Assembly: GCA_040830765.1 (NCBI GenBank)
Contig: JBFOMH010000026.1
Span: 32,001-96,000, forward strand
From: Puniceicoccaceae bacterium
GTDB taxonomy: Bacteria; Verrucomicrobiota; Verrucomicrobiia; Opitutales; Oceanipulchritudinaceae
DNA: 64,000 nucleotides
Direction of reading: 5' to 3'
Every line of letters starts with the position of its first letter. Position 1 is the stretch's first letter. Shown here one piece after another: positions 6,287-57,863 of this stretch. The position numbers and the translations under genes were made by a program. A model generated the notes under the pieces. The model did no database searches. It was given only the letters and a program-made list of their open reading frames with translations, and was not told the origin of the DNA.

Positions 6287-6447
6287 GACAATAATACAGT
6301 TGAGTGCTATTGAACGACGCCCGGCACAATCTTCAATGCCCAAAATGCTGTTCTGGGCAGGATTGTGGGCGATTACGGTAAAGCACGGGCGGCAATGGCG
6401 GTATGAGAGAGGAAAGCACTATAAAAGGGGCTAGAACAGGAGGTAAG

Positions 6448-19983: not shown

Positions 19984-20079
19984 GTTTATTCCAGTTGGTT
20001 GGTCTCTCGTTTCTGGTCCCCGTTTGACGAAACCGGAAATCCGGATGATGGTTATTTCACAAACAGTCCTTTTTCATCC

Positions 20080-25752: not shown

Positions 25753-25755
25753 TCT

Positions 25756-27258: not shown

Positions 27259-27285
27259 GTCGATTTTCCTTTAGAGTAGGTTAGC

Positions 27286-29378: not shown

Positions 29379-29536
29379 GGTGCAAGGTATCTGCCAGCAT
29401 AGTGACAGGGGTCTTTACGCTGCAATGAAAAAGCCCGGAATTGCCAAGCGCATGCAGCGCTGTGTTGGTCCAGAGTAGGTACGCCGACCTGCCTGTTGTC
29501 GTAGCGAATCTACTAGATTGAATAGCAGAGACTGGG

Positions 29537-30841: not shown

Positions 30842-30853
30842 GGCAATGGTTCC

Positions 30854-32209: not shown

Positions 32210-32420
32210 GAGAGTTGATTGCTTCTGAAGCTAGCAGGGAAGAGTGGGTACAGGTGGTATTGGATACTGAATGGGATGAGTCGATTAGCAGTTTTAATTT
32301 CATTTGTTATTTCATTTTAATTTCAAATTTTGGCAAGATTTATTCTTGCTCCAATTTTCCCTTCAGGCAATCATCAATACGGAATAACCCCATTATAAAA
32401 GCCGATAATACCGCCAAGCC

Positions 32421-34448
32421 ATGCACGAAAACGCAAAAGAAAATCCTGTCCGAAGCTATTTATTTCATGAAATAAACTTCTTTTCGTTTGTCTTATTCTT
32501 CTGTTTGGGTTCTTCCGTAGCCTGGGCCGAGAACCTGGTCACCAACGGGGATTTCAGTACGGGTGACCTGACAGGTTGGGCCACGACGGAGACAGCTCCG
32601 GTCACAATAACCCATGATGGAACGGAGGGAAACCCATCTGGTTCTGCGCTTCTGGCCCGCAACGACTCCAGCTTGTCGGCGAATGCCAACTACCTCTACC
32701 AGGTTATACCGGTTACATCCGGTCAGCAATACAAGCTGGATGCGGAATGGAAGGGGGACCTGCTCAATGGGGGTACGGGCCGCAACTGGGCGGAAGTGTT
32801 TGTTTCCTTTGCCGCATCCCCGACAGCGACGCCCTCCGGTATTATCTACAAGAAGGCCAGTGACGGTGGTCCCAATGACCAACCGATGCCCTGGGACTGG
32901 GAGAGCGTCCTGCTTTCACCCGACAACGGGGCGTCCCCGGAGGACGGCATCTTTACCGCCACTGGCGACTACATGGTCATCGGATTCAACCTTGGGGGCC
33001 GCGCTGTTTCCAGCAACAACACCCAGCCCGGATTCTTCTGGGTCGATAATGTCAGTGTGTCGCCCTATCCACCAAACCAGGTCCCGATTGTCACCGACCT
33101 GGCGGTTGCGGGGGAGGAACTTTCGGTCACCGGCCAAGACGGGCCCCCGAATGGAGCCTACCAGATCCTGCATACCAGCAATCTTGCTGCGAACCATGCA
33201 GATTGGTCAGAAATTGCCATTGAAGCATTTGATGCGGAAGGCGGGTTTGCCTTCTCGACAGACCTGACGGCCAACCCGGCGAACTTCTATCGGATAGGTG
33301 TATTGTCCCGGGTCAGTTCGCCCAGCATTACCGTTCAGCCCTTCGACATCGCAACGACTGAGGGGAAGTCTGTCACCTTCAGTGTCAGCGCGGATGGCCT
33401 GGAGCCGTTGAGCTACCAATGGTACTTCAATTCCGGAATCCTGGAGGGCGAGACAGGCGATACGCTTTCCTTGTCCGATGTGCAGTTGGACGATGTTGGT
33501 GACTACACCGTAGTCGTCATGAACCGATTCGGAGAAGTCACCAGTGAGGTTGCCAGCTTGTCCATCATTGAGGACTCCGGGCTTGTTGTTGATGGATATG
33601 CCGCCATGAACGGCGGAACCACCGGTGGCGGCAATGCAACGCCGGTCACCGTCACCACCGCGGCTGAGTTCAAGTCACTCGCGGAGAACAATACCCCGGC
33701 AGTCATCATCGTCCAGGGGCGGCTCAATGTGGGATCGGTGAACATCGGTTCCAACAAGACGATTATCGGAGCGGACTCCCAATCCGGGTTGTATGGTGGG
33801 AATGGCCTTAGTGTCGATGGATCGAACTACATATTCAAGAACCTGACCTTTGGGCCCGCCGAGGGCGATGTCATGGAGATTTCTGGCGGGACCAATGTTT
33901 ATATAACGAAGTGCGAGTTTTATGACAGCACGGATGAGCTCTGTTCGATCGTCCGGCAAGCCGACTACGTCACCATTTCCTGGAGCAAATTCTATTTCAA
34001 AAATCCTGACGGGCATTCCTTTGCCCACCTGATCGGGAATAGTGATGGCGCTACCGCCGACAGGGGCAAGCTGCATGTCACTCTGCACCACAACTGGTAT
34101 TCGGATGGTCTCCGGGGAAGATTACCGCGGGTCCGGTTCGGATTTGTCCACATCTACAACAATTACTACAATGCCCCGGATTCCGGTTATTGCGTCGGCA
34201 TTGGATATGAATGTCACATCCGGTTGGAGAACACGCATTTTGAAAATGTCTCCAAGCCATGGTCGGATTACGGAGGTGTGAATAATGGAGAACTTGGATG
34301 GGCCAATCTCAAGTTCACCAACGCCAGCCAGCCGACGTTCATGCCGAATACCTACCCGACAATCTTTACCCCACCTTATTCCTACACCTTGGATGATGTG
34401 GAAGCTGTTAAGAGCCTCGTCACCGCAGGGGCGGGGAATACTTGGTAG
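32421..34448 (+). CDS. Secreted multidomain PL1 pectate lyase (CBM-like, internal FYRI domain, Ig, PL1)
   Basis: NLVTNGDF CBM-like start; Ig domain (LSYQWY...DVGDYTV); GGTTGGG, SNKTIIG, VTISWSKF, VTLHHNWY, RLPRVRFG, HIYNNYY. Confidence 0.88.
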   Translation: MHENAKENPVRSYLFHEINFFSFVLFFCLGSSVAWAENLVTNGDFSTGDLTGWATTETAPVTITHDGTEGNPSGSALLARNDSSLSANANYLYQVIPVTSGQQYKLDAEWKGDLLNGGTGRNWAEVFVSFAASPTATPSGIIYKKASDGGPNDQPMPWDWESVLLSPDNGASPEDGIFTATGDYMVIGFNLGGRAVSSNNTQPGFFWVDNVSVSPYPPNQVPIVTDLAVAGEELSVTGQDGPPNGAYQILHTSNLAANHADWSEIAIEAFDAEGGFAFSTDLTANPANFYRIGVLSRVSSPSITVQPFDIATTEGKSVTFSVSADGLEPLSYQWYFNSGILEGETGDTLSLSDVQLDDVGDYTVVVMNRFGEVTSEVASLSIIEDSGLVVDGYAAMNGGTTGGGNATPVTVTTAAEFKSLAENNTPAVIIVQGRLNVGSVNIGSNKTIIGADSQSGLYGGNGLSVDGSNYIFKNLTFGPAEGDVMEISGGTNVYITKCEFYDSTDELCSIVRQADYVTISWSKFYFKNPDGHSFAHLIGNSDGATADRGKLHVTLHHNWYSDGLRGRLPRVRFGFVHIYNNYYNAPDSGYCVGIGYECHIRLENTHFENVSKPWSDYGGVNNGELGWANLKFTNASQPTFMPNTYPTIFTPPYSYTLDDVEAVKSLVTAGAGNTW

Positions 34449-44053: not shown

Positions 44054-45436
44054 ATGAAAACCATCACTTGGAATACTCGCAGCCTGCGCTCAGCAGGTGT
44101 CCTGTTATGCGCATGCACCCTTTTTTGCTCCATGAGGATGCATGCTGAACTTATTGCCTACGAAGGGTTCGATTACACTGCCGGAACAATCCTGGGGCCG
44201 AATGACCTGATTGGTGAAGGTGAACTCGGCAATGGTTGGGAAGGGGTCTGGATCCGGTCGCGAAATTCAACCCCTAGTGGATATGCTCCGTTGCAGGATG
44301 GAAGTTTGTCCTATACTGATGCCTATGGAAGCACGCTCATAACTTCGGGTAATCACGTCCTGGTATCGGGACAGACTATGACAGAAGGCGGACAGAATAC
44401 GACAGTTGGTCGCGATTTGGCCGGGCTGGAATCAACGCCTGGGAGCGTGTATTACATCTCCTTTATTGCCCAACGTCTCGGAGATCCGGTGGATATGAGC
44501 AATGCGTATTGGGACACCCTTGATCCCCCGGGATACATTTATGGAACAAATGCCTATCCCCGGGCAGCGGGAGTCCGCTTCCTGCCAGATGCCGGCAACA
44601 ATAAACTGAGTGCGCTCGTGGGTCGGTTTTCGAATCAGCCGACGGGTGTCTGGACGCTAGCAGGAGAAGCCCTCACGGGAGACAATGATATTGAAAGTGA
44701 TGTTCCCCTTACAGAGACATCCTTTATTGTGGTCAGGATCGAATATTTTGACGGGGGACCAGGTGTCGACTCAGGGGGTAACCCGATTGACGTCATTGGG
44801 ACAACCGTCAGCCTCTGGGTGAATCCGGAAAACCTCAAAATTGAGACTGCTCCCGTTGGCACGGCAACGCCGGTCGATGAAGATCTTGGTGATCAGCCGG
44901 TCCTTTGGGGGATTGATGGAATTGGGATTGAAGGTAACAATGAGTCGGTCACTCCCGAGGGATTTGTCACGCGCGCCGTCTCCAAGATTGCAGTCGATGA
45001 ATTGCGCATCGGCACAACTTGGGATGATGTAACTCCCAGTGAGGGTGGTTCGTCCCCGATGTGGGCTCATTATCCAATCCAACCAGATGGTTCTTCAGTC
45101 GATACGGGCGGACTTGTCGGGTGGATCGATTATTCTGGTTCGGATTTTGTCTTTAGCTACAGTCTCGGCAAGTATATCTACATGCCTCAGGCTTATGTAA
45201 GCACATTGGGGGCCTGGTTCTTCATTCTCGGTGAGAGCACCCCACAGTCAGGTGAGTCATTGTGGGCTGGATACAGCAAGGACGCTGAAGGTTATGTCGA
45301 CACAATGGGCCTGTTGGGTTGGATATGGGTTGGACCACAAGGTTACATATACAGCTTTGACCTTGGAAAGTATATTTACCTTCCGGAGGAATTTGTCATT
45401 TCCAGTGGTGCCTGGGCCTATGCCGGCGTTGAGTAG
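44054..45436 (+). CDS. Secreted hypothetical protein with two tandem Trp-rich C-terminal modules
   Basis: Signal peptide, ELIAYEGFDY...DELRIGTTWDDV domain, then two ~60-aa repeats W.GY...VDT.G..GWI.....S..LGKYIY.P......GAW. Confidence 0.85.
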   Translation: MKTITWNTRSLRSAGVLLCACTLFCSMRMHAELIAYEGFDYTAGTILGPNDLIGEGELGNGWEGVWIRSRNSTPSGYAPLQDGSLSYTDAYGSTLITSGNHVLVSGQTMTEGGQNTTVGRDLAGLESTPGSVYYISFIAQRLGDPVDMSNAYWDTLDPPGYIYGTNAYPRAAGVRFLPDAGNNKLSALVGRFSNQPTGVWTLAGEALTGDNDIESDVPLTETSFIVVRIEYFDGGPGVDSGGNPIDVIGTTVSLWVNPENLKIETAPVGTATPVDEDLGDQPVLWGIDGIGIEGNNESVTPEGFVTRAVSKIAVDELRIGTTWDDVTPSEGGSSPMWAHYPIQPDGSSVDTGGLVGWIDYSGSDFVFSYSLGKYIYMPQAYVSTLGAWFFILGESTPQSGESLWAGYSKDAEGYVDTMGLLGWIWVGPQGYIYSFDLGKYIYLPEEFVISSGAWAYAGVE

Positions 45437-45483: not shown

Positions 45484-46290
45484 TTACTCGCTTCCGGCGA
45501 CAATCGCGGTATCCCCGAGTCCTTCGGGGCCCATGCTCTGGTAGCCGCCATCGACTGGCAGGTCGGTGCCGGTTATGAAGGACGCATCATCGCTGAGGAG
45601 AAACAGGACCGGCTTGGCGACTTCCTCGACGAAGCCCAGGCGTCTCAACATATGATACGCGCCCCAGACCGGGGTATACTTTTCCCGGTCGCCACCGGCT
45701 GCCTTGTCCACTTCCCGGGTCCAAATCCAGCCGGGGCTGACAGAGTTGACGCGGATCCCTTTCGAAGCCAGGTCCAATGCGGAGCACTTGGTCAATTGAT
45801 TGACGGCCCCCTTGGCGCAGTTGTAGGTCCATCGCTCCTTTTGCGCAACAAAGCCTGAAATGCTGGAAACGTTAACGATACTGCCTGCCCCGGACTTTTC
45901 CATGTGGGGAGTTACCAGTTGAGTCATCAAGGCGTAGGCAATTGGCCCGACAGCGTAAGTATGCTCCCAGTCTTCTGGTTTGGCATCGAGCGCCTTGGCG
46001 AGAAAAGAGAAGGCATTATTAACCAGATAGTTGATTGTGCCCCACTTGTCGGCCGTTGCCTCCACGACATGTTGACAAAACGCCTCGTCTTTCATGTTGC
46101 CGGGGAAGAGCTCCACTTTGTATCCAGTCTCCTGTAACTTCTTATACGCCTCATCGCCGTCCTGTTCCAATCCAGTAATGGATACCTTGCAGCCTTCCTG
46201 GCAGAGTGCTTCAGCGATGGCATAGCCAATGCCGGCTGTGCCTCCGGTTACGATGGCGACCTTGTCTTGAAATCTTTTTGAATGACTCAT
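45484..46290 (-). CDS. Short-chain dehydrogenase/reductase
   Basis: TGGTAGIG, LVNNA, SSIS, YNCAK, RVNSVSPG, VDGG. Confidence 0.93.
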   Translation of the reverse strand: MSHSKRFQDKVAIVTGGTAGIGYAIAEALCQEGCKVSITGLEQDGDEAYKKLQETGYKVELFPGNMKDEAFCQHVVEATADKWGTINYLVNNAFSFLAKALDAKPEDWEHTYAVGPIAYALMTQLVTPHMEKSGAGSIVNVSSISGFVAQKERWTYNCAKGAVNQLTKCSALDLASKGIRVNSVSPGWIWTREVDKAAGGDREKYTPVWGAYHMLRRLGFVEEVAKPVLFLLSDDASFITGTDLPVDGGYQSMGPEGLGDTAIVAGSE

Positions 46291-46291
46291 T

Positions 46292-47254
46292 TTACTTTCC
46301 TATCTGGTTGACCGGGTTCTTTGGGGCCCCGCCCCTGAGGCAGCGGACCATCTCTTCCGCTGCGCACTTTTGCAGATTCGTAATGCTGGACTCACTGTAG
46401 TAGGACATATGCGAGGTGAGAAGGGCGTTCTCGCAGCTCAGCAGAGGATGATCCAGTGGGATGGGTTCCTCTTCGAAAACATCAATCCCGGCATAGGCGA
46501 TTATCCTATTGTTCAGTGCCTCCGCCAGATCGACTGTGTTAATCAGGGGTCCCCGGGCCGTATTGATGAGGATGGAAGTTGGCTTCATCGCGGCAAGGGT
46601 ATCCTTGTTGACGAGATGTTTGTTTTCCCCCGTCATGGGAGCGTTGATGCTCAAAACGTCGGCGATTGAAAACATCTCCTCAACGCTGTGCAACCGGCTG
46701 ACGCCTGTTTCAGTGAACAAGGCATCGTCGACAAAGGGATCGTAGGCATGCAGCTTGAACCCGAAGGCTTTGGCTCTCCGATGAATGCCACAGGCAATGC
46801 GGCCCAGCCCGTAGGTGACAAAGTTCATTTCCCTGAAGGCATGCATGGGAGTGACTGGACTCAGGGACCAGTTTCCCTTTCGCAAGCGTTTATCGAGGGC
46901 GGGTAATTGGCGTCCCAGCGCCAATGCCAGGCTGACAGCGTGATCGGCAACTTCCTCAATGCAGTAGTCCGGAATATTGCAAACCTGGATGCCTTTAGCC
47001 GTTGCCGCCTCAAGGTCGACATTATCGTACCCGATGCCATAGCGGATGATCGCTTTGCAGTTCTCCAGTTGGTCGATCAACGCCTTAGTGAAAGGGGAGA
47101 ATTGAACAAATATGCCATCCGCATCCTTGGCGTGCTGGACGATTTCATCTACCGTATCCCAGGGACCTACGGACAGGGTTGCGCCAATGGAATCCATGGC
47201 GGCCTTTTCATGAACATGGTCCGCAAAGGAATTTCTGGTTATGACAGTCTTCAT
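46292..47254 (-). CDS. D-isomer-specific 2-hydroxyacid dehydrogenase (CtBP-like)
   Basis: RYGIGYDNVD, PDYCIEEVADHA, GLGRIA, INTARG, DVFEEEP, TSHMSYYS. Confidence 0.92.
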   Translation of the reverse strand: MKTVITRNSFADHVHEKAAMDSIGATLSVGPWDTVDEIVQHAKDADGIFVQFSPFTKALIDQLENCKAIIRYGIGYDNVDLEAATAKGIQVCNIPDYCIEEVADHAVSLALALGRQLPALDKRLRKGNWSLSPVTPMHAFREMNFVTYGLGRIACGIHRRAKAFGFKLHAYDPFVDDALFTETGVSRLHSVEEMFSIADVLSINAPMTGENKHLVNKDTLAAMKPTSILINTARGPLINTVDLAEALNNRIIAYAGIDVFEEEPIPLDHPLLSCENALLTSHMSYYSESSITNLQKCAAEEMVRCLRGGAPKNPVNQIGK

Positions 47255-47263
47255 GTTATCTGC

Positions 47264-48277
47264 TTACGGATTCAGGATTGCCTTAATGTGGTTGCCTTGA
47301 GGATTCAACATGGTGCGAAAGGCTTTTTCTCCCTCATCAAGGGTATAACGGTCTATCCAGTCCAAATTGATCTTCTGGTTTTTCAATAAATCGATCGCGA
47401 TTTTGTAATCCGGTTGATTGGCCGAGTATGTCCCGAGAACCTGTTTCTCACCCAGTGTAATTCCGTAGCTGTTAAGGCTTATCTTGTCCGTGCCCAGTCC
47501 CAGCCACACGGCGCAGCCGCCCGGTCGCAGGCATTCGATGGATTGGGCTTTTGTCGATTCCGTTCCGGCAGCATCGACCACAACATCAAATCCTTCGCCT
47601 TTGGTAAAATCCAGCATTTGGTCCCGGTTGCTTTCGTCTCCGGCAAGGCTGGTTGCTGAAGCCCCCAGCATCTTCGCGGTATCCAGCCTTTCCTGTATCG
47701 TGTCGGTTACATAGGTCCTTGTTCCCATTAGGACCTGCAGTGCCTGCTGGCACATCAGTCCGATGGGACCGGCTCCAATAACCAGGGCATTCTGCGGGTT
47801 GGTGTGCCTCGTCAGGCTGACAACATGAACGCCATTGCCCAACGGTTCGGTCAGGCAGGCATGATTCGCGGGCAAGCTGTCCGGCCACTGGTAAAGTGCG
47901 TGGATGGGGACACTCACATACTCCGCAAATGCACCGTTGCGGTGCATGCCAAACAATTCCTTGTTCGGACACAGGTGGTAATTGCCCCGATGGCAAGTTT
48001 GACATTTGCGACAGGGAACCAGCGCACTGACGATCACCCTGTCGCCAACCCTGAAGTCCCCTCCGGTTGAAATGTCGACAATTTCGCCGCAAAACTCATG
48101 CCCGAGAATGATGGGCGGCTTTCGCCTTCGGCTTATTGACTTAAAGGATTCCAGCTCGCTCCCGCAAATTCCACAGGCAGCTACCTTGACGATGGCCTCA
48201 TCCATTTGTGAGAGGCTCGGATCGGTGAATTCCTGAAGTTCTATCGTTTCCCAATCTACGTAAACGAGGGCCTTCAT
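47264..48277 (-). CDS. Zinc-dependent polyol/sugar-acid dehydrogenase (MDR)
   Basis: CGICGSE, LGHEFCG, structural Zn motif CRKCQTCHRGNYHLC, GAGPIG. Confidence 0.92.
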   Translation of the reverse strand: MKALVYVDWETIELQEFTDPSLSQMDEAIVKVAACGICGSELESFKSISRRRKPPIILGHEFCGEIVDISTGGDFRVGDRVIVSALVPCRKCQTCHRGNYHLCPNKELFGMHRNGAFAEYVSVPIHALYQWPDSLPANHACLTEPLGNGVHVVSLTRHTNPQNALVIGAGPIGLMCQQALQVLMGTRTYVTDTIQERLDTAKMLGASATSLAGDESNRDQMLDFTKGEGFDVVVDAAGTESTKAQSIECLRPGGCAVWLGLGTDKISLNSYGITLGEKQVLGTYSANQPDYKIAIDLLKNQKINLDWIDRYTLDEGEKAFRTMLNPQGNHIKAILNP

Positions 48278-49128
48278 AAATGATAAATTCTCCTCGCGTT
48301 GGCATTGAAAAACAGCACCTGCTCGGTGTCGCTGAAATCATCCAGATAACGGGTAATCGTCTCGTACCACCTTGCGTAGGTTCCGTTCAGTGTGCAGACG
48401 GGCCAATCGCCACCAAAGAACACCCGGTCGATTGTGAATTGCTCAAAGACGGTGTCGAGGTAAGGCCGCAGGTCCTCGTACGACCAGTCCTCTCCAGCCT
48501 CATTCATGAGACCGGACACCTTGCTGGTGGTATTGGGTAGGCTCGCCAGTTGGGCGATGTATTCATCCCAGGGGGAGAGAATTCCGTCCGCGATGAAGGG
48601 CTTACCGATGTGGTTGAGGATAAAGGGGACATTGGGTGTTTGCCGGACCAGGGAGAGGACATTCTCGAATTGCTGATCCCCCTTGATGCAAATCTCAAAG
48701 TTCCAACCACACTTTTCCATCAGTTGGACGCCTTTTATAAAGTCGGGTTGCAGGCAGAATTCATCATCGTCTTCAAATTGGATAATCCTCCGAATGCCGT
48801 TAACGAGTGGGTAATCCTTCAGCTTGTCGATATCCTCCTGGGCGGCATCTCCCTTTTCCAGCGGTGCCCAGGCGGTAATGGATTGGATGCGTGAGTCTTG
48901 CGTTTGTGCGATGTCGCTCACCCACTTGACTTCATCCAGGTACTGACTGGGCTCCGCTTCGCACTGGAGGAAGACCATTTTTTCAATCTCGATGCCCTGC
49001 GTGGCCTTCTTGTAATCGGGAATCAGGTGGGGGGCATTGATGCTGGGGACATCCTTCAACCAAGGGTAATGGATGGCGTTGGGATCCCAAAGGTGCAAAT
49101 GGGTGTCGATAATCGGGGTCTTATTCAT
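48274..49128 (-). CDS. Amidohydrolase_2 family sugar lactonase (L-fuconolactonase-like)
   Basis: IIDTHLHLWD, GIRRIIQ, LNHIGKP, KVSGL, FGGDWPVC; 4-nt overlap with the Zn dehydrogenase. Confidence 0.87.
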   Translation of the reverse strand: MNKTPIIDTHLHLWDPNAIHYPWLKDVPSINAPHLIPDYKKATQGIEIEKMVFLQCEAEPSQYLDEVKWVSDIAQTQDSRIQSITAWAPLEKGDAAQEDIDKLKDYPLVNGIRRIIQFEDDDEFCLQPDFIKGVQLMEKCGWNFEICIKGDQQFENVLSLVRQTPNVPFILNHIGKPFIADGILSPWDEYIAQLASLPNTTSKVSGLMNEAGEDWSYEDLRPYLDTVFEQFTIDRVFFGGDWPVCTLNGTYARWYETITRYLDDFSDTEQVLFFNANARRIYHL

Positions 49129-49194
49129 CGTTCACAAGGGGGATTTAACGGGCGCATTCTCCATGAGACGGAGTATTCTGACAGTATCGGTGGA

Positions 49195-50262
49195 TTATGT
49201 CGGTGAGGAAGACTTTGGCAACGCAATCGGATGGACATACTCGGGATCCTTCTCCTGCCGGTACTGAATGGTGGCAATCTCCTTCCATACGGCAATGAGG
49301 CCGTGCTTGGTCGGCGGGAGGTCATGCCGGATGAGGCGGTGTAACCTGGCTAACCGGTAGCACGGCACAGCGGCATACATGTGATGCTCCGTGTGGAAAT
49401 TCATATGCCAGTAGAGGAATTGAACGACTGGATTAAGGGTGAACGTGCGGCAGCACAGGCGGAAGTCCGGTACAAAATCCCGCAGGCCGATATGCTGGGT
49501 ATTGTTGCACAGGAAAAAGAGCCATCCACCATAGAAACGGGAACCGGTGACCAGCAGGGGCACTATCCAGTATCCACTAACCAATCCCCCCGCGATAATC
49601 AGGCCATGGCCGAGGAGTAGCACTCGTGCCCAATTTACAGGAGCCTTGCGCTTCTTCGGGTCAGACTCCGGAAACAAGGTTTCCTCCCATTCGCCTTTAA
49701 AATTCCCCAGGGCCTTCTCGATGACCCATTTTGGGGTGTAGTAAAGGTCCTTGAAATTGATGAAGGCAGAGAGGAAAAAGTGACGCACCATCAGTTTGAT
49801 GGGCAGGACAACCTCCAAATCGTCTGGCGGATGCAAAGTGTACCGATGGTGGCGGATATGGCTCTCCTGGAAGGTCTCATCATTGATTATCCCGAGAAAC
49901 GCGAAGATCTTGCAAAAGAAACGATTGCACCAGCGGGTTTTGAAGACGGTTCCATGCCCCAATTCATGCACGGCGTTGATCATGAAGGCGGCTACGGTCC
50001 CGTGCAGAAATACCAACAGCACGGTGGTCCAGGCGGGCCAGAATGCGAAAGAGACGATGGCCAGGGTGAGGGTGGTCAGGTAGAGGCCCAGGTATCCGCC
50101 TGTCTGCAGGGCCCCCAAGAGGTCGCTTTTGCGGTGAAGGCTCTTGAATTCCTCCTTTGATATCGGGCTGCGGTACCAGTCAATCGCCGGGGCATTGCGC
50201 TGTTTGGCTGTAAAGACGGGGAGGGCATCCGGCTCTTGGGGAAGAGGAGATGGGATCTTCAT
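49195..50262 (-). CDS. Membrane fatty-acid-desaturase superfamily di-iron enzyme, MocD-like
   Basis: Three His boxes HELGH, HIRHH and HTEHH, plus HGTVFKT, NTQHIGL and YAAVPCY; transmembrane segments. Confidence 0.85.
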   Translation of the reverse strand: MKIPSPLPQEPDALPVFTAKQRNAPAIDWYRSPISKEEFKSLHRKSDLLGALQTGGYLGLYLTTLTLAIVSFAFWPAWTTVLLVFLHGTVAAFMINAVHELGHGTVFKTRWCNRFFCKIFAFLGIINDETFQESHIRHHRYTLHPPDDLEVVLPIKLMVRHFFLSAFINFKDLYYTPKWVIEKALGNFKGEWEETLFPESDPKKRKAPVNWARVLLLGHGLIIAGGLVSGYWIVPLLVTGSRFYGGWLFFLCNNTQHIGLRDFVPDFRLCCRTFTLNPVVQFLYWHMNFHTEHHMYAAVPCYRLARLHRLIRHDLPPTKHGLIAVWKEIATIQYRQEKDPEYVHPIALPKSSSPT

Positions 50263-50460
50263 TTCGTCATCCTAACACAATCAGCAATGGATTGCTTTCT
50301 AAAATCTACGGCAATCCGTAATTATCGGCCCAAAACCATCCACGTCCTTGACTTCTCGTTGATTTAACCTAACACAGAGGCCAGTGGTTGCCGCAACGGG
50401 ACAGATTCTCAAATCTCTGGACTTCAACTTACGGCGTGGACGTCTTGTCACGGGATAAGC

Positions 50461-53400
50461 ATGCAATTCTTCCGCAATCTATCCATTCGGGCAAAGCTGA
50501 TGAGCATTCTTATGTTCAGCTGTGTCATTTCGTCGGGATTGGTGGCGGTTGCCTTCCTGACCTATGAGTTGGTCAACGTCCGCAGTTCAATGGTCAAAAG
50601 GCTGCTGACCGACGCAAGAGTCATCTCGGTGAACATCCGCGAGCCGATGCTCTCCGGCAACAAGGCCGCTGCCGACGAAATCCTCGCCACGCTCAGCACC
50701 GACCGGAGCATAGTGGCCGCCTTCCTCTTTGATAGCGAAGGGGCAGTTTTTGCCACTTTCCAGAGGGATACAGAGAATCCGATGGCGGCTCCCGACCCCG
50801 ATGCCAAAAAGCAAGGATTCTCCCTCGGCCAGTTACGGATTTCCGAACCCATCCAGCAGGCTAATCAGCAACTGGGGACGATTTTCATCGCCCAGGATCT
50901 TAACAAGCTGAAAATGTGGGTCTTTCCCTACGTAGGCATCCTGAGCTGGGGGCTGCTCATCTCCATCCTGGTGGCGGTGATTTTGTCCAATTTGCTGGGT
51001 CGTGTCTTCTTGAGGCCGATTCTTGAACTTGCCGCAACCACCCGGCGAATCACCCGGAAACACAACTACAGCACCAGGGCCAAGTCGTTCTACAACGATG
51101 AAGTCGGCCAGTTGATCGATTCCTTCAATGAGATGCTGTCCGTGGTTGAGAACAAGGAACACGACCTCCGCGATCGTGAACAGCGCTTCCGGGCCCTGAT
51201 TGAAAATGCCTCGGACCTTATCATCATTCTCAACAGCGAGGGCCAGATCATCTATGGTAGCCCCTCCCTGAGCCGCCTGTTCAATAACGATGCCAAGGAG
51301 TATATCGGCCAGTCATTTTTTGAATTCATGCACCCTTCAGATGTCTGGCGCTGCAAACAGACCTTTCAGCGGCTGAAGAAGCGGAGCAATACGCTGCTTG
51401 GGTTTGAATTCCAGTTCAAGGGCAGGGACGGGTCATGGATGGACATTGGCGCTATTGCCCGGAACCTTCTCCATGTCAGTGGGGTCAACGGCATCGTTGT
51501 CAATGGCCGGGATGTGACCTCCCGCAAGGAACTGACCAAGGAACTCATCACCCACAGGGATGATCTTGAGCAAATGGTCGCTGCCAGAACCCAGGACCTG
51601 GAGGCCTCCCGCAAGGCAGCTCTTGACTCGATGGAGGATGCCAATCTGCAGCGACTGCGGGCTGAGGACGCACTGGCTGAGCTTACCCTGTCGCAGGAAT
51701 CCCTCGCCAGGGCCAAGGATGCCGCTGAAGAGGCCAGCAAAGCCAAGAGTAACTTCATCGCCAACATGAGCCACGAGATCCGCACCCCCATGAATGCTGT
51801 CATCGGGTTGGCGGACCTGGCCTTGAAGTCGGACTCCAAAAAGAAACAGACCGACTACCTGGAGAAGATTCTCCGTGCATCGAGGATCCTTCTGGGGATC
51901 ATCAATGACATCCTGGATTTCTCCAAGATTGAACAGCGCAAGGTGGAGCTGGAAGCGACAACCTTCGACCTGCACGAGGAGATGCGAACCATCAATGAAA
52001 TGTTCGCACGGAACATCGAGGACAAGGGACTCTCCCTCAGGGTTGATTTCGCCCAGGATATTCCGGCTAACGTGGTCGGGGATCCGCTGCGGCTGCGCCA
52101 GATTCTCATCAACCTCTTCAGCAATGCCATCAAGTTTACTGAGAAAGGGGAAATTTCGCTTTCCGCCCGCATGGTCAAGCATGAGGAGGGCCAGATTACG
52201 CTGGAATTTTCCGTATCTGACACCGGTATCGGGATGGACGAGGAGCTCACGGCCAAGGTGTTTGAATCCTTCAAGCAGGGGGATGAGTCGACAACCCGTG
52301 TATTTGGCGGAACCGGTCTGGGCCTAGCGATCAGCAAGCACCTGGTGGAACTGATGGGCGGGACCATCTCTGCCAAAAGCTTCTACGGCAAGGGGAGTAC
52401 CTTCACCTTCACCGTGGTGTTCGAGGAGGCGGTAATGGAATCGATTCCCGAGGCACCAACCGGTCTTGAAGGACTCCGGATTCTCGTCGTCGACGAGGAA
52501 AAGGAGGTTCAGGAGATGCTCTCCCATCTGCTCAAGGACTTTTCGTTTCGAACCGCTACCGCTGGTTCGGTTGACGAGGCGGTCAAGATGCTGGGGGCGG
52601 CTCCGTTTGGCGATCCGTTCCGGCTGGTCATTCTCGACTGGAACATGCCTGAAAAGAAGGGTACGGAGGCGGTCAAAATCATCACCGAACTCAATACAAT
52701 CCCGCTCAAACCAAGCTACATGATCATGAGCGGCTACTGGAACGAGGAATTGCACAAGGACCTGGATGAATGTGGCGTCACCGCCTTCCTGCCCAAGCCC
52801 TTCAAGAGTTCCACCCTGCTGGACCTCATTATCCGGCAGTTCTCGGACGAGGTGATGGATGTTGTTCGAGCGGTGAAGGATTCAGATGCTTCCGGCATTC
52901 CCGACTTAAGCCATGCCAACCTGCTTCTCGCGGAGGACAATGAGCTCAACCAGGAAGTTGCCCTCGGACTGCTCGAGGAGACCCAGTGCAAGGTCTTCGT
53001 GGTCGAAAACGGTAAAGCTGCCTTGGAAGCCATAACAGAAGACACCTATGATCTGGTTCTGATGGACATCCAGATGCCTGAGTTGGACGGTTACGAAACG
53101 ACCCGGCAGCTTCGCGACATGGAGTCGAGGGGAGAACTTCCGAAACGGGATAACGGCGATGCCAACGATGGCCGAATCCCCATCATTGCCATGACTGCCG
53201 GCACCCTTAGTCGGGACAAGGATCGCGCCTTCGAAGCGGGAATGGATGACCATGTATCAAAACCGGTGGATCCGAAGTTGTTTTACAAGGTACTTGCCAA
53301 GTGGCTTGGGGGCGTCGCCGCGGAAGGCTCTAGTGTCGGCAAAAAGCGGGTACTTTCCCCGAAGGACGAGACAAAGTCGGATCAATCAGAAGGCATCCTG

Positions 53401-54033
53401 ACTTCACTGGCGCCATTCCCGGGCATTGAACTTGAAAAGGGCTTGATGCACGTCGGTGGCAATGAGGAACGCCTCGGAAAGCTGATGCTGAAATTCCGCA
53501 AGGGCCAGGCCAATGTTGTGGAGGAAATCAAGACCGCGCTCGCCGACGGCGACCGCGAACTGGCACACCGGACGGCCCATACCTTGAAAGGCCTCGCGGG
53601 AACACTCGGGGCCACCACTCTGCAGGAAGCTGCCCGAGTACTTGAAGCAGCGCTTAAGGGTGAACCGGGAAAGAAAGACGAAGACGCCCTCCTGGTGGAC
53701 GTGGAGCAATCCCTTCAGGAAGTAATTGAAGGACTTGCCCCTCTGGAGACCGTTCCCTCCTCTGGCGCGAAAAAGAAGAGATCGGTCAAAATCTCCAAGA
53801 AGGAACGGACACGATTGCTGAACAAGCTCTCAAGCTTGCTGGAGGATGGCGATTCCGAGGCCATTGCCTGTTATAATGAGCTAAACGAGGCTGGAGTGTT
53901 TTCCACCGGCAGTGGCCAGCCTGACCAGCTCGGCAGCCTGATTGAAGCCTACTCGTTCGAGGAAGCCAAGGCGGTCCTGAAGACGATAATGGAGAGTCCT
54001 GAAGATGATAAGGAAGCTGTGAAAGATGACTGA
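50461..54033 (+). CDS. Hybrid sensor histidine kinase (periplasmic sensor-HAMP-PAS-HisKA-HATPase-REC-REC-Hpt)
   Basis: Two TMs, DEVGQLIDSFNEM, PAS, MSHEIRTPMN, NAIKFT, DTGIG, GGTGLGL, LDWNMP, MDIQMP, HTLKG. Confidence 0.95.
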   Translation: MQFFRNLSIRAKLMSILMFSCVISSGLVAVAFLTYELVNVRSSMVKRLLTDARVISVNIREPMLSGNKAAADEILATLSTDRSIVAAFLFDSEGAVFATFQRDTENPMAAPDPDAKKQGFSLGQLRISEPIQQANQQLGTIFIAQDLNKLKMWVFPYVGILSWGLLISILVAVILSNLLGRVFLRPILELAATTRRITRKHNYSTRAKSFYNDEVGQLIDSFNEMLSVVENKEHDLRDREQRFRALIENASDLIIILNSEGQIIYGSPSLSRLFNNDAKEYIGQSFFEFMHPSDVWRCKQTFQRLKKRSNTLLGFEFQFKGRDGSWMDIGAIARNLLHVSGVNGIVVNGRDVTSRKELTKELITHRDDLEQMVAARTQDLEASRKAALDSMEDANLQRLRAEDALAELTLSQESLARAKDAAEEASKAKSNFIANMSHEIRTPMNAVIGLADLALKSDSKKKQTDYLEKILRASRILLGIINDILDFSKIEQRKVELEATTFDLHEEMRTINEMFARNIEDKGLSLRVDFAQDIPANVVGDPLRLRQILINLFSNAIKFTEKGEISLSARMVKHEEGQITLEFSVSDTGIGMDEELTAKVFESFKQGDESTTRVFGGTGLGLAISKHLVELMGGTISAKSFYGKGSTFTFTVVFEEAVMESIPEAPTGLEGLRILVVDEEKEVQEMLSHLLKDFSFRTATAGSVDEAVKMLGAAPFGDPFRLVILDWNMPEKKGTEAVKIITELNTIPLKPSYMIMSGYWNEELHKDLDECGVTAFLPKPFKSSTLLDLIIRQFSDEVMDVVRAVKDSDASGIPDLSHANLLLAEDNELNQEVALGLLEETQCKVFVVENGKAALEAITEDTYDLVLMDIQMPELDGYETTRQLRDMESRGELPKRDNGDANDGRIPIIAMTAGTLSRDKDRAFEAGMDDHVSKPVDPKLFYKVLAKWLGGVAAEGSSVGKKRVLSPKDETKSDQSEGILTSLAPFPGIELEKGLMHVGGNEERLGKLMLKFRKGQANVVEEIKTALADGDRELAHRTAHTLKGLAGTLGATTLQEAARVLEAALKGEPGKKDEDALLVDVEQSLQEVIEGLAPLETVPSSGAKKKRSVKISKKERTRLLNKLSSLLEDGDSEAIACYNELNEAGVFSTGSGQPDQLGSLIEAYSFEEAKAVLKTIMESPEDDKEAVKDD

Positions 54034-56501: not shown

Positions 56502-57863
56502 TCAATCACCGGGTTCATTTGCCTCCGCCTTCAGGGCCATATCCAGTCGTTCGTTCAACTCGACTCGAGCCTGTGCCAGTACCCGCTGGGCATCCGGGTT
56601 GGGCGTGACCAAGGCCAGCTCCTCGACCAGCGTCAGTTGCTGACGTACCTGTTCAGCCGTGAGCATGCCACCCGCTGGTGCATAGAAGAAGTTCTGGTTG
56701 TTGAGGTTGATGTGGGATACGCCCGTATTTACCTCCACCAGCGAGGGCAGCTCATCATTGAAGACCGAATCCAGGACTTGTGCCTGGTCTCCGGCGAGCG
56801 GTCGCGTCAAATAGGGCCAGTGGTTCGCCGGAATCTGATTTTCCTGAGCCTGTTCAATGAGTGCCTCCCGGGCATCAGGATTCGCCACAGCCATCTGGGC
56901 CAGCATCTGGAGGGCCTGCAACCGGGCTGGACCCGAGCTGCCGTTCGGTTGGGCCTGGGCCAGTTCGATCAGGGAGGGAACACCTGCTCCTTCAGGCAAG
57001 TTGCCCAACGTCAAGGTGGCATAATAGCTCCAGTAGGACGCGGAATTTTGCAGATCGCCAACGATCGCAGTGCCGCCGTATCGTTCCAGCACTTCAAAGA
57101 GTGGAGCAACATCATAGCCTTCCAATTGCTGTTCAACCGCCATGGCCAGTGATTCGCGGGCGGCCTCTACTGCCTTGGCACGATATTGGTCGGGAGCAAT
57201 CGCTTCCAGCATAGCCGCCAGCCAGGCGATCTCCCTGGGGGAGGCTGTGGTCTGCAATACGTTGCCCAGGACCCCGATCGCCTCCGGACCGCCAATCCAG
57301 GCCAAAGCATCGAATACCGCTACCCGGGTCGATTCGTACCCAAGCGCGGCCATCGTTGCCTCATCAAAATGCTGGTCCTGGTAGGAGTTCAGCAACTGCG
57401 CCAAGGCGGGCACCGATGCGATCCCTCCACGGACCAGACTCTCGAATGTCTGCTTCCACACGCCGGCATTTTCTCCGGTCACCGGGCCGGTCTCCGCCAG
57501 GCTCCAGAGGGTCCCCACCATTTGTTGCGACTCCGGCGAAGGCGGTGGCAGATAAGGCGCTTCAATGAGCGGAGGGGGCGGGGTGGTGGAAATCGACGAA
57601 GGTGCTGCCGTGACTTGATCCGGAGAAAAGGATCCCCCCTCTGCGATCGTGGTCTCCGGAAGGACCGACTCTGTTACGCGTGGCTGCTCAGTATCGCGCG
57701 CAATGGTGGATTCCGCTTCCGAACGCTTGCTGCACCCGACGGCAAGGGTAAGATACCCGCAACTCACGGCCATGATGGCATAAACCAATCCACGACTGGC
57801 ATTCCGCCTTGGTGCCTGATCTATGGCCTGGTGTCGTGATATGTGAGTTGGAGCAATCATCAA
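56502..57863 (-). CDS. Hypothetical lipoprotein with Pro-rich linker and HEAT-like helical repeats
   Basis: Lipobox-like LAVGC, Pro/Ser/Thr-rich linker, repeated VPALAQLL / ALAWIGGPEAIGVL / GVPSLIELA helices. Confidence 0.7.
   Translation of the reverse strand: MMIAPTHISRHQAIDQAPRRNASRGLVYAIMAVSCGYLTLAVGCSKRSEAESTIARDTEQPRVTESVLPETTIAEGGSFSPDQVTAAPSSISTTPPPPLIEAPYLPPPSPESQQMVGTLWSLAETGPVTGENAGVWKQTFESLVRGGIASVPALAQLLNSYQDQHFDEATMAALGYESTRVAVFDALAWIGGPEAIGVLGNVLQTTASPREIAWLAAMLEAIAPDQYRAKAVEAARESLAMAVEQQLEGYDVAPLFEVLERYGGTAIVGDLQNSASYWSYYATLTLGNLPEGAGVPSLIELAQAQPNGSSGPARLQALQMLAQMAVANPDAREALIEQAQENQIPANHWPYLTRPLAGDQAQVLDSVFNDELPSLVEVNTGVSHINLNNQNFFYAPAGGMLTAEQVRQQLTLVEELALVTPNPDAQRVLAQARVELNERLDMALKAEANEPGD

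Follow-up and report, generated by a model that had tools for sequence, protein, structure and literature searches.

Does a membrane oxygenase gene that heads a run of sugar-oxidation genes supply those genes with their substrate, and might that substrate be a methylated sugar? The question is raised by a five-gene unit in a 64,000-nucleotide stretch of DNA from a Puniceicoccaceae bacterium, called the window here. A first-pass annotation had seen a MocD-like oxygenase leading a lactonase/dehydrogenase operon and had proposed a pathway of methyl-sugar demethylation and catabolism. The reading that we favour, with a probability of about 0.5, is that the substrate of the oxygenase is of a carbohydrate type and that its gene fronts a sugar-oxidation module in this lineage only; as the leading guess, the enzyme may hydroxylate an O-methyl group with O2 and leave the sugar to be oxidised by the module.

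The unit is a co-directional minus-strand run of five ORFs at 45484-50262 in the window's ORF listing (Table 1), and ORF coordinates and Pfam assignments agree exactly with the genes, gaps and families first described for it. From the oxygenase gene downstream, the spacings are a 66-nt gap, a 4-nt overlap between the lactonase stop and the Zn-dehydrogenase start, and then gaps of 9 and 1 nt; a terminator scan found no terminator-like site between the genes. The five genes are presumably transcribed together from the 198-nt upstream region, in which a consensus scan found no promoter (the whole scanned stretch gave 5 sites against 4.2 expected). A 1785-nt RNA-library contig (record 6 of metatranscriptome run X2) extends from 47771 to 49555, bridging the 66-nt spacer, and hints at co-transcription over the oxygenase/lactonase junction; both flanking genes, the convergent and the divergent one, are covered by contigs of the library to a similar depth, so that carried-over DNA in it is possible. 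The Pfam scan of the window took in 39 ORFs, made up of 36 of the 38 non-nested ORFs of at least 200 aa and three nested ones; outside it were 5216-6343 (-) and 56502-57863 (-), each overlapping a scanned ORF of the opposite strand. Lipid-metabolism families were absent from the 39 scanned ORFs, as were ferredoxin, sugar-acid dehydratase and aldolase families, which bears out the earlier description of the window on both counts.

Table 1. Features of the five-gene unit and the ORFs that bound it (window positions).
Feature	Position	Strand	Basis
Convergent ORF, 460 aa, without Pfam family, bounding the unit	44054-45436	+	
Short-chain dehydrogenase (SDR), putative sugar 1-dehydrogenase, 268 aa	45484..46290	-	Pfam adh_short_C2
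D-isomer-specific 2-hydroxyacid dehydrogenase, 320 aa	46292..47254	-	Pfam PF02826 + PF00389
Zn-dependent medium-chain dehydrogenase, 337 aa	47264..48277	-	Pfam ADH_N + ADH_zinc_N
Putative sugar lactonase, Amidohydrolase_2 (cog3618-type), 284 aa	48274..49128	-	Pfam PF04909, NCBIfam, PDB
Spacer between oxygenase and lactonase genes, 66 nt	49129..49194	-	No terminator-like hairpin; spanned by RNA-library contig
Clade-W membrane di-iron oxygenase, 355 aa	49195..50262	-	Pfam PF00487, trees, hydropathy, model
Intergenic region between oxygenase gene and divergent kinase gene, 198 nt, presumed promoter region of the unit	50263..50460	.	Coordinates, sequence
Divergent hybrid histidine kinase, bounding the unit	50461-54033	+	

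The protein encoded at 49195-50262 is an integral-membrane di-iron oxygenase of the desaturase fold. It matches the Pfam family FA_desaturase (PF00487) with 118.4 bits (cut-off 29.7) over profile positions 1-249 of 253, and its three His boxes, HELGH at 99-103, HIRHH at 135-139 and HTEHH at 290-294 (HxxxH, HxxHH, HxxHH), are invariant across 31 aligned relatives. Hydropathy gives two hydrophobic hairpins, with stretches at 55-101 and 211-241. The predicted structure (pLDDT 76) aligns with the alkane monooxygenase FtAlkB (8sbb_A) at Z 9.0 over 260 residues with an rmsd of 4.7, where unrelated rows stay at Z 5.6 or below; beyond its own family, the closest Atlas structures are desaturase-Rieske fusions.

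Among plasmid genes, the best relatives of the oxygenase are 267 near-full-length MocD-like genes (E 1e-32 to 1e-40), which are arranged as triplets of MocD, a Rieske protein (MocE) and a reductase, whereas other plasmid-borne desaturase-family genes reach it at E 2e-6 or weaker only. Identity to the rhizobial MocD-like genes is about 33% over 95% of the length. In the tree, the oxygenase falls inside a clade, here called W (SH-aLRT 97), whose sister is formed by the MocD-like proteins together with Rieske-fused forms (92), and the alignment has conserved polar residues that are common to clade W and the MocD clade and absent from the outgroups. The outgroup consists of three other desaturase-family proteins, none of them an experimentally proven lipid desaturase; from these, as in the plasmid matches, the oxygenase stands apart, and a grouping with lipid desaturases was what the earlier annotation had named as evidence against its proposal. 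The label MocD-like holds in so far as MocD types are nearer than any sampled desaturase-family protein, but the oxygenase belongs to the sister clade and not to the MocD clade itself. On this phylogeny, clade W is shown to be uncharacterised and sister to the MocD-type (rhizopine) oxygenases of rhizobia; we found no measured activity in the literature consulted for any member of either clade. The basal members of clade W, of other families, are fusions with rubredoxin and rubredoxin reductase, and rubredoxin fusions are confined to them; some basal relatives have a rubredoxin or a plant-type 2Fe-2S ferredoxin in place of a Rieske protein.

Clade W is present in many glycan-degrading phyla and is patchy: it turned up in 12 of the 401 genomes sampled from the phylum and, with the window oxygenase as query, in one of 13 genomes of its own genus. 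The commonest neighbour is an AraC regulator, adjacent in 11/35, 7/17 and 6/18 loci, and the loci usually hold glycoside hydrolases, sugar dehydrogenases, lactonases and aldolases. Of 18 genome-derived loci, 7 have glycoside hydrolases no more than four ORFs away from the W gene (GH13, GH29, GH31/GH5, GH2, GH35, GH78-like and GH63-like). The enzyme families of the window recur beside W genes in other arrangements: a 2-hydroxyacid dehydrogenase, an Amidohydro_2 protein and an SDR stand alongside at L170, Gfo/Idh/MocA and 2-hydroxyacid dehydrogenase genes follow at L112, the closest fragment, an Amidohydro_2 gene is found at L076, an HpcH aldolase at L052 and L091, and at L171 the genes for an ABC transporter, Gfo/Idh/MocA and xylose-isomerase-like proteins make up a moc-like set. 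These surroundings support a carbohydrate, not a lipid, context for the oxygenase and its relatives; the distribution of clade W is an accessory one, and with the AraC neighbours it points to an inducible character.

The four genes downstream of the oxygenase encode enzymes of recognisable families. The lactonase matches PF04909 with 117 bits and, in the PDB, 6uvz (E 3e-22) and 4dlf (E 1.5e-20), and it scores 131 bits with the NCBIfam L-fucono-1,5-lactonase model (cut-off 400). The Zn-dehydrogenase scores highest in NCBIfam with the model for threonine 3-dehydrogenase (190 bits, cut-off 380), and its identity to the E. coli L-galactonate oxidoreductase LgoD is 28%. The 2-hydroxyacid dehydrogenase matches PDB 1wwk at E 6e-50, the SDR matches adh_short_C2 with 198 bits, and the L-fucose dehydrogenase model gives 149 bits against 300 on the module dehydrogenase, a match at family level only. 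No sugar can be named, because all four enzymes fall short of the NCBIfam equivalog cut-offs. The SDR is the best-conserved gene of the module: its orthologues in the modules of six related genomes are 58-62% identical, and a 61% identical copy adjoins a lactonase gene in one genome of the same genus; the SDR and lactonase, taken at the outset as the entry pair of a sugar oxidation, prove to be a conserved core of the downstream genes. No dehydratase or aldolase was found in the unit, elsewhere in the window's scanned ORFs, or beside the module in the six related genomes.

The linkage between oxygenase and module, on which the first-pass annotation had staked its proposal, is not conserved. 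The window's four genes were beside the W gene at none of 35 genome loci (32 with at least 1 kb downstream), none of 41 metagenome loci (23 with at least 1 kb downstream) and none of 18 further loci. The four-gene module stands without an adjoining oxygenase in five of six related genomes, and the sixth is without the 2-hydroxyacid dehydrogenase. A W gene is also present in four of those genomes, either on a different contig or at a distance of 250-520 kb from the module; in the module-bearing relative G274 no W gene was found with the window oxygenase as query. Furthermore, the gene order of the module differs between the window and its relatives, and therefore a local rearrangement occurred. 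On comparative grounds, the best reading is that oxygenase and module were probably joined in a lineage-specific event and do not reflect a conserved pathway design.

The oxygenase is a stand-alone protein, with no fused or adjacent electron carrier. Queries with Rieske, MocE, MocF, rubredoxin and 2Fe-2S sequences gave no tblastn match on the window's contig, and the genome-wide search for MocE and MocF that had been suggested for this locus brought up no partner, nor did the genome hold a rubredoxin or cytochrome b5 partner for the oxygenase. The only Rieske domains of the genome are inside two fused paralogues on contig C11, and its 2Fe-2S domains are confined to ORFs of 271-644 aa. Neither this genome, which is 96.9% complete, nor any of five further W-bearing genomes from the order gave a match to rubredoxin (PF00301), and no Rieske gene was found within 8 kb of the relatives' loci (37 genome and 46 metagenome loci). 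The genome also has one P450, within a sugar locus, and for that reason the description of the proposed route as a non-P450 one needs care.

If the oxygenase serves the module, it would use O2 and two electrons from a general donor to hydroxylate a substrate that is small, polar and like a sugar; the most favoured specific guess is that an O-methyl group is hydroxylated and departs as formaldehyde. The freed sugar would then be oxidised to a lactone by the SDR, the lactone ring would be opened by the lactonase, and the Zn-dehydrogenase and 2-hydroxyacid dehydrogenase would carry the product towards central sugar-acid catabolism. O-demethylation by this enzyme is plausible by analogy and from gene context, but its pairing with the module is peculiar to this genome, and a methyl-sugar demethylation route is therefore a reasonable idea only. 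A wider proposal, which we offer tentatively, is that clade W may be a third, undescribed architecture of oxidative sugar O-demethylase beside the P450 and MocDEF-type Rieske systems: stand-alone (rubredoxin-fused at its base), AraC-switched in glycan degraders of many phyla and unlocking methylated sugars, and wired in this genome to the oxidation module of the freed sugar.

It is also conceivable, though we consider it unlikely, that the oxygenase acts alone on a carbohydrate-type substrate and came to lie before the four genes by an accident of rearrangement, without feeding them. W genes mostly stand alone with an AraC regulator, the Pfam results place no AraC gene next to the window's oxygenase, and both the separation of module and W gene in the four related genomes and the altered module order would fit such an accident; against it, the 66-nt same-strand gap is free of terminator-like sites and bridged by the RNA-library contig, and enzymes of the module's families are found next to W genes in several independent arrangements.

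Two further explanations would take the enzyme away from sugars. That it is a membrane-lipid desaturase or hydroxylase, fed by a general ferredoxin or flavodoxin and with no role in sugar catabolism, is suggested by its Pfam family, by the lack of any other stand-alone PF00487 gene in the genome, and by its want of a dedicated electron partner, since lipid desaturases usually have none and many draw on a general ferredoxin or flavodoxin; lipid-type neighbours (diacylglycerol kinase, PEMT, ceramidase) also occur at about three kinds of locus among 70 W relatives. We hold this improbable: the NCBIfam lipid desaturase models DesA and DesB give about 22 bits against cut-offs of 500, the tree puts the oxygenase next to MocD-type enzymes and apart from the three desaturase-family proteins sampled beside them, clade W was found in few genomes of its phylum and genus, its surroundings are dominated by AraC regulators and glycoside hydrolases, and the scanned window is free of lipid genes. 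We give very little credence to an AlkB-like enzyme that would hydroxylate a nutrient of hydrophobic or amphiphilic nature (an alkyl chain or aglycone, for instance), even though AlkB is the sole sequence match among solved structures (E 0.008), FtAlkB is the best-understood structural match, basal clade W has the AlkB-type electron chain of rubredoxin and rubredoxin reductase, and AraC-type regulators are known for alkane hydroxylase genes too. The similarity to AlkB is marginal against that to MocD-type proteins, rubredoxin is missing from this and the five other W-bearing genomes, and the neighbours are sugar enzymes and not alcohol/aldehyde dehydrogenase and acyl-CoA genes.

The module resembles systems of non-phosphorylative L-fucose/L-galactose oxidation (e.g. 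BmulJ_04915, PDB 4dlf) in its pair of sugar 1-dehydrogenase and cog3618 lactonase, and it shares with the Luteolibacter lgu cluster for L-galactose/L-glucose a Zn-dependent dehydrogenase and a keto-acid reductase-type enzyme, along a route from sugar to lactone, aldonate and keto-aldonate. The later steps in Luteolibacter are assigned to a Zn-type aldonate dehydrogenase and a tagaturonate reductase (PMC12632266); there, an aldo-keto reductase takes the place of the SDR, and no lactonase is described (PMC12632266). The four window proteins, in contrast, are far below the equivalog cut-offs, and the unit is without dehydratase, kinase and aldolase. With AlkB alkane 1-monooxygenase and its rubredoxin AlkG, the oxygenase has in common the overall fold (Z 9.0) and, at the base of clade W, the rubredoxin/rubredoxin-reductase fusions, but the sequence similarity is marginal (E 0.008), the genome has no rubredoxin, and the context is one of sugar, not hydrocarbon.

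In porphyran-degrading Flavobacteriia, a P450 with ferredoxin and ferredoxin reductase demethylates 6-O-methyl-D-galactose, and an adjoining Zn-dependent alcohol dehydrogenase is required for growth on the methyl sugar (PMC10033563, PMC6292453). The likeness is in the proposed oxidative O-demethylation, from methyl sugar to sugar and formaldehyde, within a glycan-degradation locus; the P450 is a soluble haem enzyme with dedicated redox partners, whereas the oxygenase is a membrane di-iron enzyme of an unrelated protein family without any, and at E 1e-40 or better the window's Zn-dehydrogenase matches threonine dehydrogenases in the PDB and not those P450-linked alcohol dehydrogenases.

Closer comparisons are found among MocD-type enzymes. 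MocD has been named a rhizopine oxygenase, converting 3-O-MSI to SI (PMC2593844), and mocDEF a rhizopine-inducible unit (PMC10107442). Like the oxygenase, MocD of the Sinorhizobium/Rhizobium MocDEF system (rhizopine being 3-O-methyl-scyllo-inosamine) is a desaturase-fold di-iron membrane protein with the same His boxes and shared clade-specific residues, and it is found among sugar or cyclitol enzymes in an inducible setting of catabolism. The oxygenase differs in belonging to the sister clade, in having no adjacent Rieske ferredoxin (MocE) or flavin reductase (MocF), in the lack of a LacI or MocR regulator, and in its taxa. The MocA-type dehydrogenase, MocC-type TIM-barrel enzyme and binding-protein transporter are likewise absent from the five-gene unit, but such genes adjoin some W relatives (L171, L166, L112). 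Verrucomicrobiota also have fused MocD-Rieske-flavin reductase proteins of about 760-790 aa, and the two paralogues on contig C11 are of this kind. These are the nearest structural neighbours of the oxygenase in the Atlas, their desaturase domain is 31% identical to it, and they lie in carbohydrate loci with AraC regulators. They differ in falling inside the MocD clade, not clade W, and in bringing their own electron chain, with a Rieske domain 51% identical to S. meliloti MocE; they are also much commoner in near relatives, occurring in 9 of 40 against one (G040) for the W type when the window oxygenase is the query.

The five genes that the first-pass annotation had read as an operon were recovered at the same coordinates in the ORF listing, with spacings of 66, -4, 9 and 1 nt. 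Pfam agreed with their families, and the matches of all five proteins far exceed the cut-offs. The oxygenase carries the histidine boxes HELGH, HIRHH and HTEHH and two long hydrophobic stretches. The unit lies between a divergent hybrid histidine kinase and a convergent 460-aa ORF to which neither Pfam nor NCBIfam assigns a family, and which has three paralogues on contig C19 (28-31% identical). The Pfam scan covered 39 window ORFs, namely 36 of the 38 non-nested ORFs of at least 200 aa and three listed nested ones; the two ORFs outside it each overlap a scanned ORF on the opposite strand. Glycoside hydrolases, pectate-lyase-like proteins, transporters and signalling proteins were found among these 39 ORFs, and lipid, ferredoxin, sugar-acid dehydratase and aldolase families were absent from them, as had been claimed. 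Elsewhere in the window, genes for a 2-oxoadipate dioxygenase/decarboxylase (HGLS, 546 bits), an aldehyde dehydrogenase and a saccharopine-dehydrogenase-like protein stand in a row, and after them come three ORFs to which Pfam assigns no family. The window also has a URO-D-fold gene, weakly matched at 37 bits, that resembles in kind the companions of the fused oxygenases on contig C11.

Coordinates of the features discussed (window positions unless another contig or locus is named)
Feature	Location	Strand	Source or remark
FA_desaturase-family oxygenase	49195-50262	-	ORF listing and Pfam
Amidohydro_2 lactonase	48274-49128	-	ORF listing and Pfam
Zn-dependent alcohol dehydrogenase	47264-48277	-	ORF listing and Pfam
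D-2-hydroxyacid dehydrogenase (2-HADH)	46292-47254	-	ORF listing and Pfam
SDR	45484-46290	-	ORF listing and Pfam
460-aa ORF	44054-45436	+	convergent on the unit
HGLS row	24376-28416	-	three genes
Three ORFs after the HGLS row	28494-32209		no Pfam family
URO-D-fold gene	14109-15227	+	37 bits
ORFs outside the Pfam scan	5216-6343; 56502-57863	-	
Metatranscriptome contig	47771-49555		1785 nt
Fused-oxygenase locus	own genome (G000), C11 1-30000 (L120, L121)		outside the window
GNAT ORF	C11 locus, 19301-20215		
P450 locus	own genome (G000), C27 ~31000-34000 (L173, 4056-6852)		outside the window
Rubredoxin-fused W genes	L153 (G384); L154 and L155 (G118)		pyridine-nucleotide-disulphide reductase and rubredoxin-binding domain included
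W gene with second desaturase-fold gene	L167 (G256:C28:1-8000)		
PanB paralogues	L060 9640-10449; L125 8958-9758		rhizobial plasmids

The oxygenase reached no NCBIfam equivalog; the top model was the arginine hydroxylase GntB with 37 bits, and the lipid desaturase models DesA and DesB gave about 22 bits, against cut-offs of 380-500. Among 72,556 plasmids, 267 records, mostly from Rhizobium and Sinorhizobium, hold near-full-length relatives (E 1e-32 to 1e-40, about 33% identity), and the remaining plasmid desaturase-family genes match only at E 2e-6 or weaker. Behind the MocD-like genes of R. etli, Aminobacter and S. meliloti come genes for a Rieske ferredoxin, annotated 'MocE-like' or 'MocE family', and an FAD-dependent reductase, with a LacI regulator alongside. 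Excerpts from two papers describe MocD as the rhizopine oxygenase that turns 3-O-MSI into SI (PMC2593844), and mocDEF as a unit induced by rhizopine and required in its catabolism (PMC10107442). On the strength of these relatives, gene rows and excerpts, the name 'MocD-like' given in the first-pass annotation is fair at the superfamily level, but the window protein itself belongs to a sister clade, here called W, and not to the MocD clade. In R. etli and S. meliloti alike, the MocD-like/MocE/reductase triplet is followed by a PanB paralogue annotated as ketopantoate (3-methyl-2-oxobutanoate) hydroxymethyltransferase.

A protein search with the window oxygenase returned 3237 relatives, the best 120 of which are 58-91% identical; few of these are named, and those as 'fatty acid desaturase'. 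The 91%-identical orthologue, P0002, is encoded on a 57.6-kb contig, and orthologues 42-66% identical occur in Verrucomicrobiota, Planctomycetota, Chloroflexota, Armatimonadota, Lentisphaerota, Spirochaetota, Ignavibacteriota and Poribacteria. Two quick maximum-likelihood trees were built, with SH-aLRT as the sole support measure. The first, of 58 rows, combined the window protein with 18 of those 120 relatives, 20 ORFs taken from 19 of the 35 genome loci, two more from G040, 11 fused forms, and six plasmid desaturase-family proteins, three of them MocD-like and three not; for the second, of 62 rows, the mis-called L039 and the duplicate L120 were removed and six rows added. The window protein lies inside W (SH-aLRT 97), and the sister of W is formed by the rhizobial MocD-like and Rieske-fused proteins (SH-aLRT 92). 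In this phylogeny, which had been proposed as a check against lipid desaturases, W stands apart from the outgroup of three other plasmid desaturase-family proteins; these have long branches and include no proven lipid desaturase, so that the score gap weighs as much as the tree in placing W nearer to MocD than to lipid desaturases. Positions W29-Y30, S134, D148, Q256, D266 and R268 are common to W and the MocD clade and missing in the outgroups, and the two clades differ, for example, at H219 of W, which is Y in the MocD clade. Open-access papers and preprints yielded no account of a clade of stand-alone MocD relatives in glycan degraders.

The linkage of the oxygenase to the lactonase, Zn-dehydrogenase, 2-HADH and SDR genes (the module), central to the first-pass reading, is not conserved, an outcome that the first-pass annotation had itself listed as refuting. 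In tblastn searches, orthologues of the four module proteins stood beside W in none of 35 genome loci (at least 1 kb of downstream sequence in 32, at least 3 kb in 23) and none of 41 metagenome loci (23 and 17, respectively), the sole matches there being a Zn-dehydrogenase at 25%, an SDR at 28% and a 2-HADH at 27% identity. Homologues of the window's TonB-dependent receptor and of the 460-aa ORF were likewise absent beside W genes elsewhere. Queried with the Zn-dehydrogenase, 401 genomes of the phylum gave six with a match, all from one family of the window's order. In five of them the four genes are adjacent on one strand, 47-62% identical to those of the window and in another order; the sixth has no 2-HADH. 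None of the six has a desaturase-fold gene at the module, which is surrounded by genes for putative glycoside hydrolases, a heparinase-like protein and regulators. Five of the six genomes, all but G182, were searched for W, and four, among them the complete genomes G271 and G099, carry an orthologue (53-59%) on another contig or 250-520 kb away; the window query found none in G274, also a complete genome. Another genome of the window's genus has the lactonase (44%) and the SDR (61%) adjacent, without the other two genes. Because the four genes occur in related genomes without the oxygenase, they form a separate module with an SDR-lactonase core, and the oxygenase is set ahead of it in the window's lineage only. 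As the operon is not a conserved pathway, conclusions from it are not simply transferable to the W family.

Within the unit, a promoter/terminator scan found no terminator-like hairpin between genes; it counted 5 promoter-like sites where 4.2 were expected, and 1 terminator-like site where 6.4 were, which is no better than chance, and the scan is thus uninformative about the transcript. The stretch is present in nine public runs from three studies. Two runs are recorded as metatranscriptomes, with the sample type labelled mollusc metagenome; for runs X3 and X4 an RNA nature is only a guess. A contig from one metatranscriptome bridges the spacer: on one side it takes in the entire lactonase gene and part of the Zn-dehydrogenase gene, and on the other 361 nt of the oxygenase gene. 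Contigs of RNA runs are no proof of a single transcript, and carried-over DNA is possible because the opposite-strand flanking genes show similar depth, so the contig bridging the spacer gives weak support for co-transcription. Contig depth in RNA libraries was left out of the ranking of genes, and stretches of the unit uncovered in some runs carry no weight.

Elsewhere, W genes are found among regulators and carbohydrate enzymes. An AraC-type regulator adjoins W in 11 of 35 genome loci (two ORFs per side), in 7 of 17 metagenome loci (three ORFs per side; two are near-duplicates) and in 6 of 18 loci from genomes of the phylum; in 7 of these 18 a glycoside hydrolase lies within four ORFs. Most of the AraC-type regulators are divergent, and they often have a cupin or periplasmic-binding sensor domain. 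Locus L157 has a same-strand row of PhyH, W, a URO-D-like gene and a GH29 fucosidase, and GH2 or GH78-like genes immediately follow W in L161 and L160. Recurrent neighbours include PhyH dioxygenases, aldo-keto reductases, Zn-dehydrogenases, Gfo/Idh/MocA dehydrogenases, xylose-isomerase-like TIM barrels, HpcH aldolases, lactonases, sugar kinases, SSF transporters and URO-D-like proteins, and URO-D-fold (methyltransferase-type) genes lie repeatedly next to both MocD-type and W-type genes. These counts are lower bounds because the simple ORF caller took opposite-strand shadow ORFs, which yield no Pfam match, in several GC-rich loci. Three loci are most like the window in spirit. L170, from the window's order, has a 2-HADH, an aldehyde dehydrogenase, four PhyH, an Amidohydro_2 and an SDR around W, just 24-33% identical to the window proteins; L112, the closest fragment (86% over 74 residues), continues with a Gfo/Idh/MocA gene and a 2-HADH; and in L171 the genes with W, for an ABC transporter, a Gfo/Idh/MocA protein, a xylose-isomerase-like protein and a Zn-dehydrogenase, are reminiscent of mocA, mocB and mocC. 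In L167, a W gene occurs with a second desaturase-fold gene (27% identical), behind which stands a MocE-like Rieske gene; this locus also has a URO-D-like gene and two AraC regulators, of which one carries a PocR sensor domain.

A profile search found three PF00487 genes in the genome. Besides that of the window there are two on contig C11, one of 764 aa and one of at least 700 aa that is cut by the contig end; both combine a desaturase domain with a Rieske domain, and the complete one also has FAD_binding_6 and NAD_binding_1. Their Rieske domains, 51% identical to S. meliloti MocE, are the only ones in the genome, so the suggested search for MocE and MocF met them as portions of these fused proteins but not as separate ones. 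Rubredoxin and cytochrome b5 were not found in the 96.9%-complete genome, and 2Fe-2S domains occur only within ORFs of 271-644 aa, the 271-aa protein being encoded on contig C4. Within 8 kb of W, Rieske, MocF-type and FNR-type genes were present at 0 of 37 genome and 0 of 46 metagenome loci. A rubredoxin follows a W-like C-terminal fragment in the three fragment-only loci (L058, L059, L115); the others of these loci gave no rubredoxin, rubredoxin-reductase or 2Fe-2S match. Among basal W members from other families of the phylum are three 811-819-aa fusions of desaturase, rubredoxin and rubredoxin reductase, each adjoined by an AraC regulator; we found no description of such an AlkB-style self-sufficient electron chain on a MocD-related enzyme. 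Behind one further basal member lie genes for a 105-aa 2Fe-2S ferredoxin and for a GH13 enzyme.

The genome has other sugar loci of interest. The one on C11 holds, besides the two MocD-Rieske-flavin-reductase fusions, five URO-D-fold genes, DUF1638, a RACo-type corrinoid activator, an aldose 1-epimerase, a tagaturonate-epimerase-like gene, an esterase, two AraC regulators, an SSF transporter, a sulfatase, GH88 and GH78. The search for a B12-binding protein in this locus was negative; one of the ORFs is a GNAT. The locus looks like a candidate methyl-sugar locus with both oxygen-dependent and corrinoid-type systems. Known sugar demethylases, according to an excerpt of PMC10033563, are P450s with dedicated redox partners. 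The only P450 of this genome, on C27, comes after genes for a Gfo/Idh/MocA dehydrogenase and a 104-aa protein to which Pfam assigns no family, and near those for a sulfatase, an esterase, an oligogalacturonate-lyase-like protein and a PfkB kinase; since the genome carries it in a sugar locus, P450 and W routes need not be mutually exclusive.

We give a probability of about 0.5 to the reading that the window protein is an O2-dependent oxygenase for a small polar carbohydrate-type substrate, co-expressed with the module and supplying it. That it functions independently of the module although adjacent is rather unlikely: W orthologues apart from the module in related genomes are consistent with it, and the close spacing and the bridging contig point the other way. 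A lipid-modifying role, in line with the database names and with the diacylglycerol kinase, PEMT or ceramidase genes that neighbour W as lipid-type genes in about three kinds of locus, is improbable given the low DesA and DesB scores. W is present in only 12 of 401 sampled genomes of the phylum and, with the window query, in 1 of 13 of the genus, the window's own; this sparse occurrence in the phylum and the AraC and carbohydrate neighbours make it look like an inducible accessory catabolic gene, not a membrane-homeostasis gene. Least probable of all is an AlkB-like hydroxylase of a hydrophobic substrate. The rubredoxin fusions would suit it, as would the match of the AlphaFold model (pLDDT 76) to FtAlkB (Z 9.0 over 260 residues). 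The latter is outranked by chain K of 8xks, the algal Orf2971-FtsHi chloroplast motor complex (Z 13.9, 283 residues), with no other match above Z 5.6, and rubredoxin is absent from five other W-bearing genomes of the order as well. Foldseek of the model against the PDB returned nothing at E <= 0.001; its top rows, the algal FtsHi motor complex subunits 8xks_K and 8xqw_M and then AlkB and SCD1 at TM 0.3-0.4, show fold class only. In the ESM Atlas, the nearest structures after the protein's own family are desaturase-Rieske and desaturase-Rieske-reductase fusions.

For the carbohydrate-type oxygenase, O-demethylation is our best specific guess, and a tentative one. It is favoured by the chemistry proposed for the sister clade, by the recurrence of URO-D-fold genes, and because a mostly solitary gene whose downstream partners change and whose regulator senses sugar would suit a lone 'unlocking' enzyme. 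Methyl ethers on algal, plant and animal glycans obstruct ordinary sugar catabolism. To our knowledge, their removal from sugars has been demonstrated only for a few P450s, and for the MocD type, proposed to act on a methylated cyclitol, we know of no assay. Surrounded by glycoside hydrolases and sugar dehydrogenases, the W family is a concrete candidate for the missing sugar-demethylating chemistry, and the label 'fatty acid desaturase' would be a systematic misannotation in Verrucomicrobiota, Planctomycetota, Chloroflexota and others. The window is among the few cases in which a W gene shares an operon-like unit with enzymes that lend themselves to substrate screening, and so offers a practical way to the substrate of the oxygenase.

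As to the module itself, none of its four proteins reached an NCBIfam equivalog cut-off; the lactonase is similar to cog3618 sugar lactonases (4dlf), and the SDR scores 149 bits with the L-fucose dehydrogenase model. A role of the Zn-dehydrogenase as L-galactonate 5-dehydrogenase was considered and found to have no specific support, its identity to E. coli LgoD being just 28%. The module can be compared with the characterised L-galactose/L-glucose route of Luteolibacter, in which, according to an excerpt of PMC12632266, oxidation of the aldonate falls to a Zn-type dehydrogenase, the keto-acid then goes to a reductase, and general hexuronate enzymes follow. By likeness to that route, the module could run from sugar to lactone, aldonate and keto-aldonate, and a general hexuronate route would then take over, which would account for the absence of dehydratase and aldolase genes.
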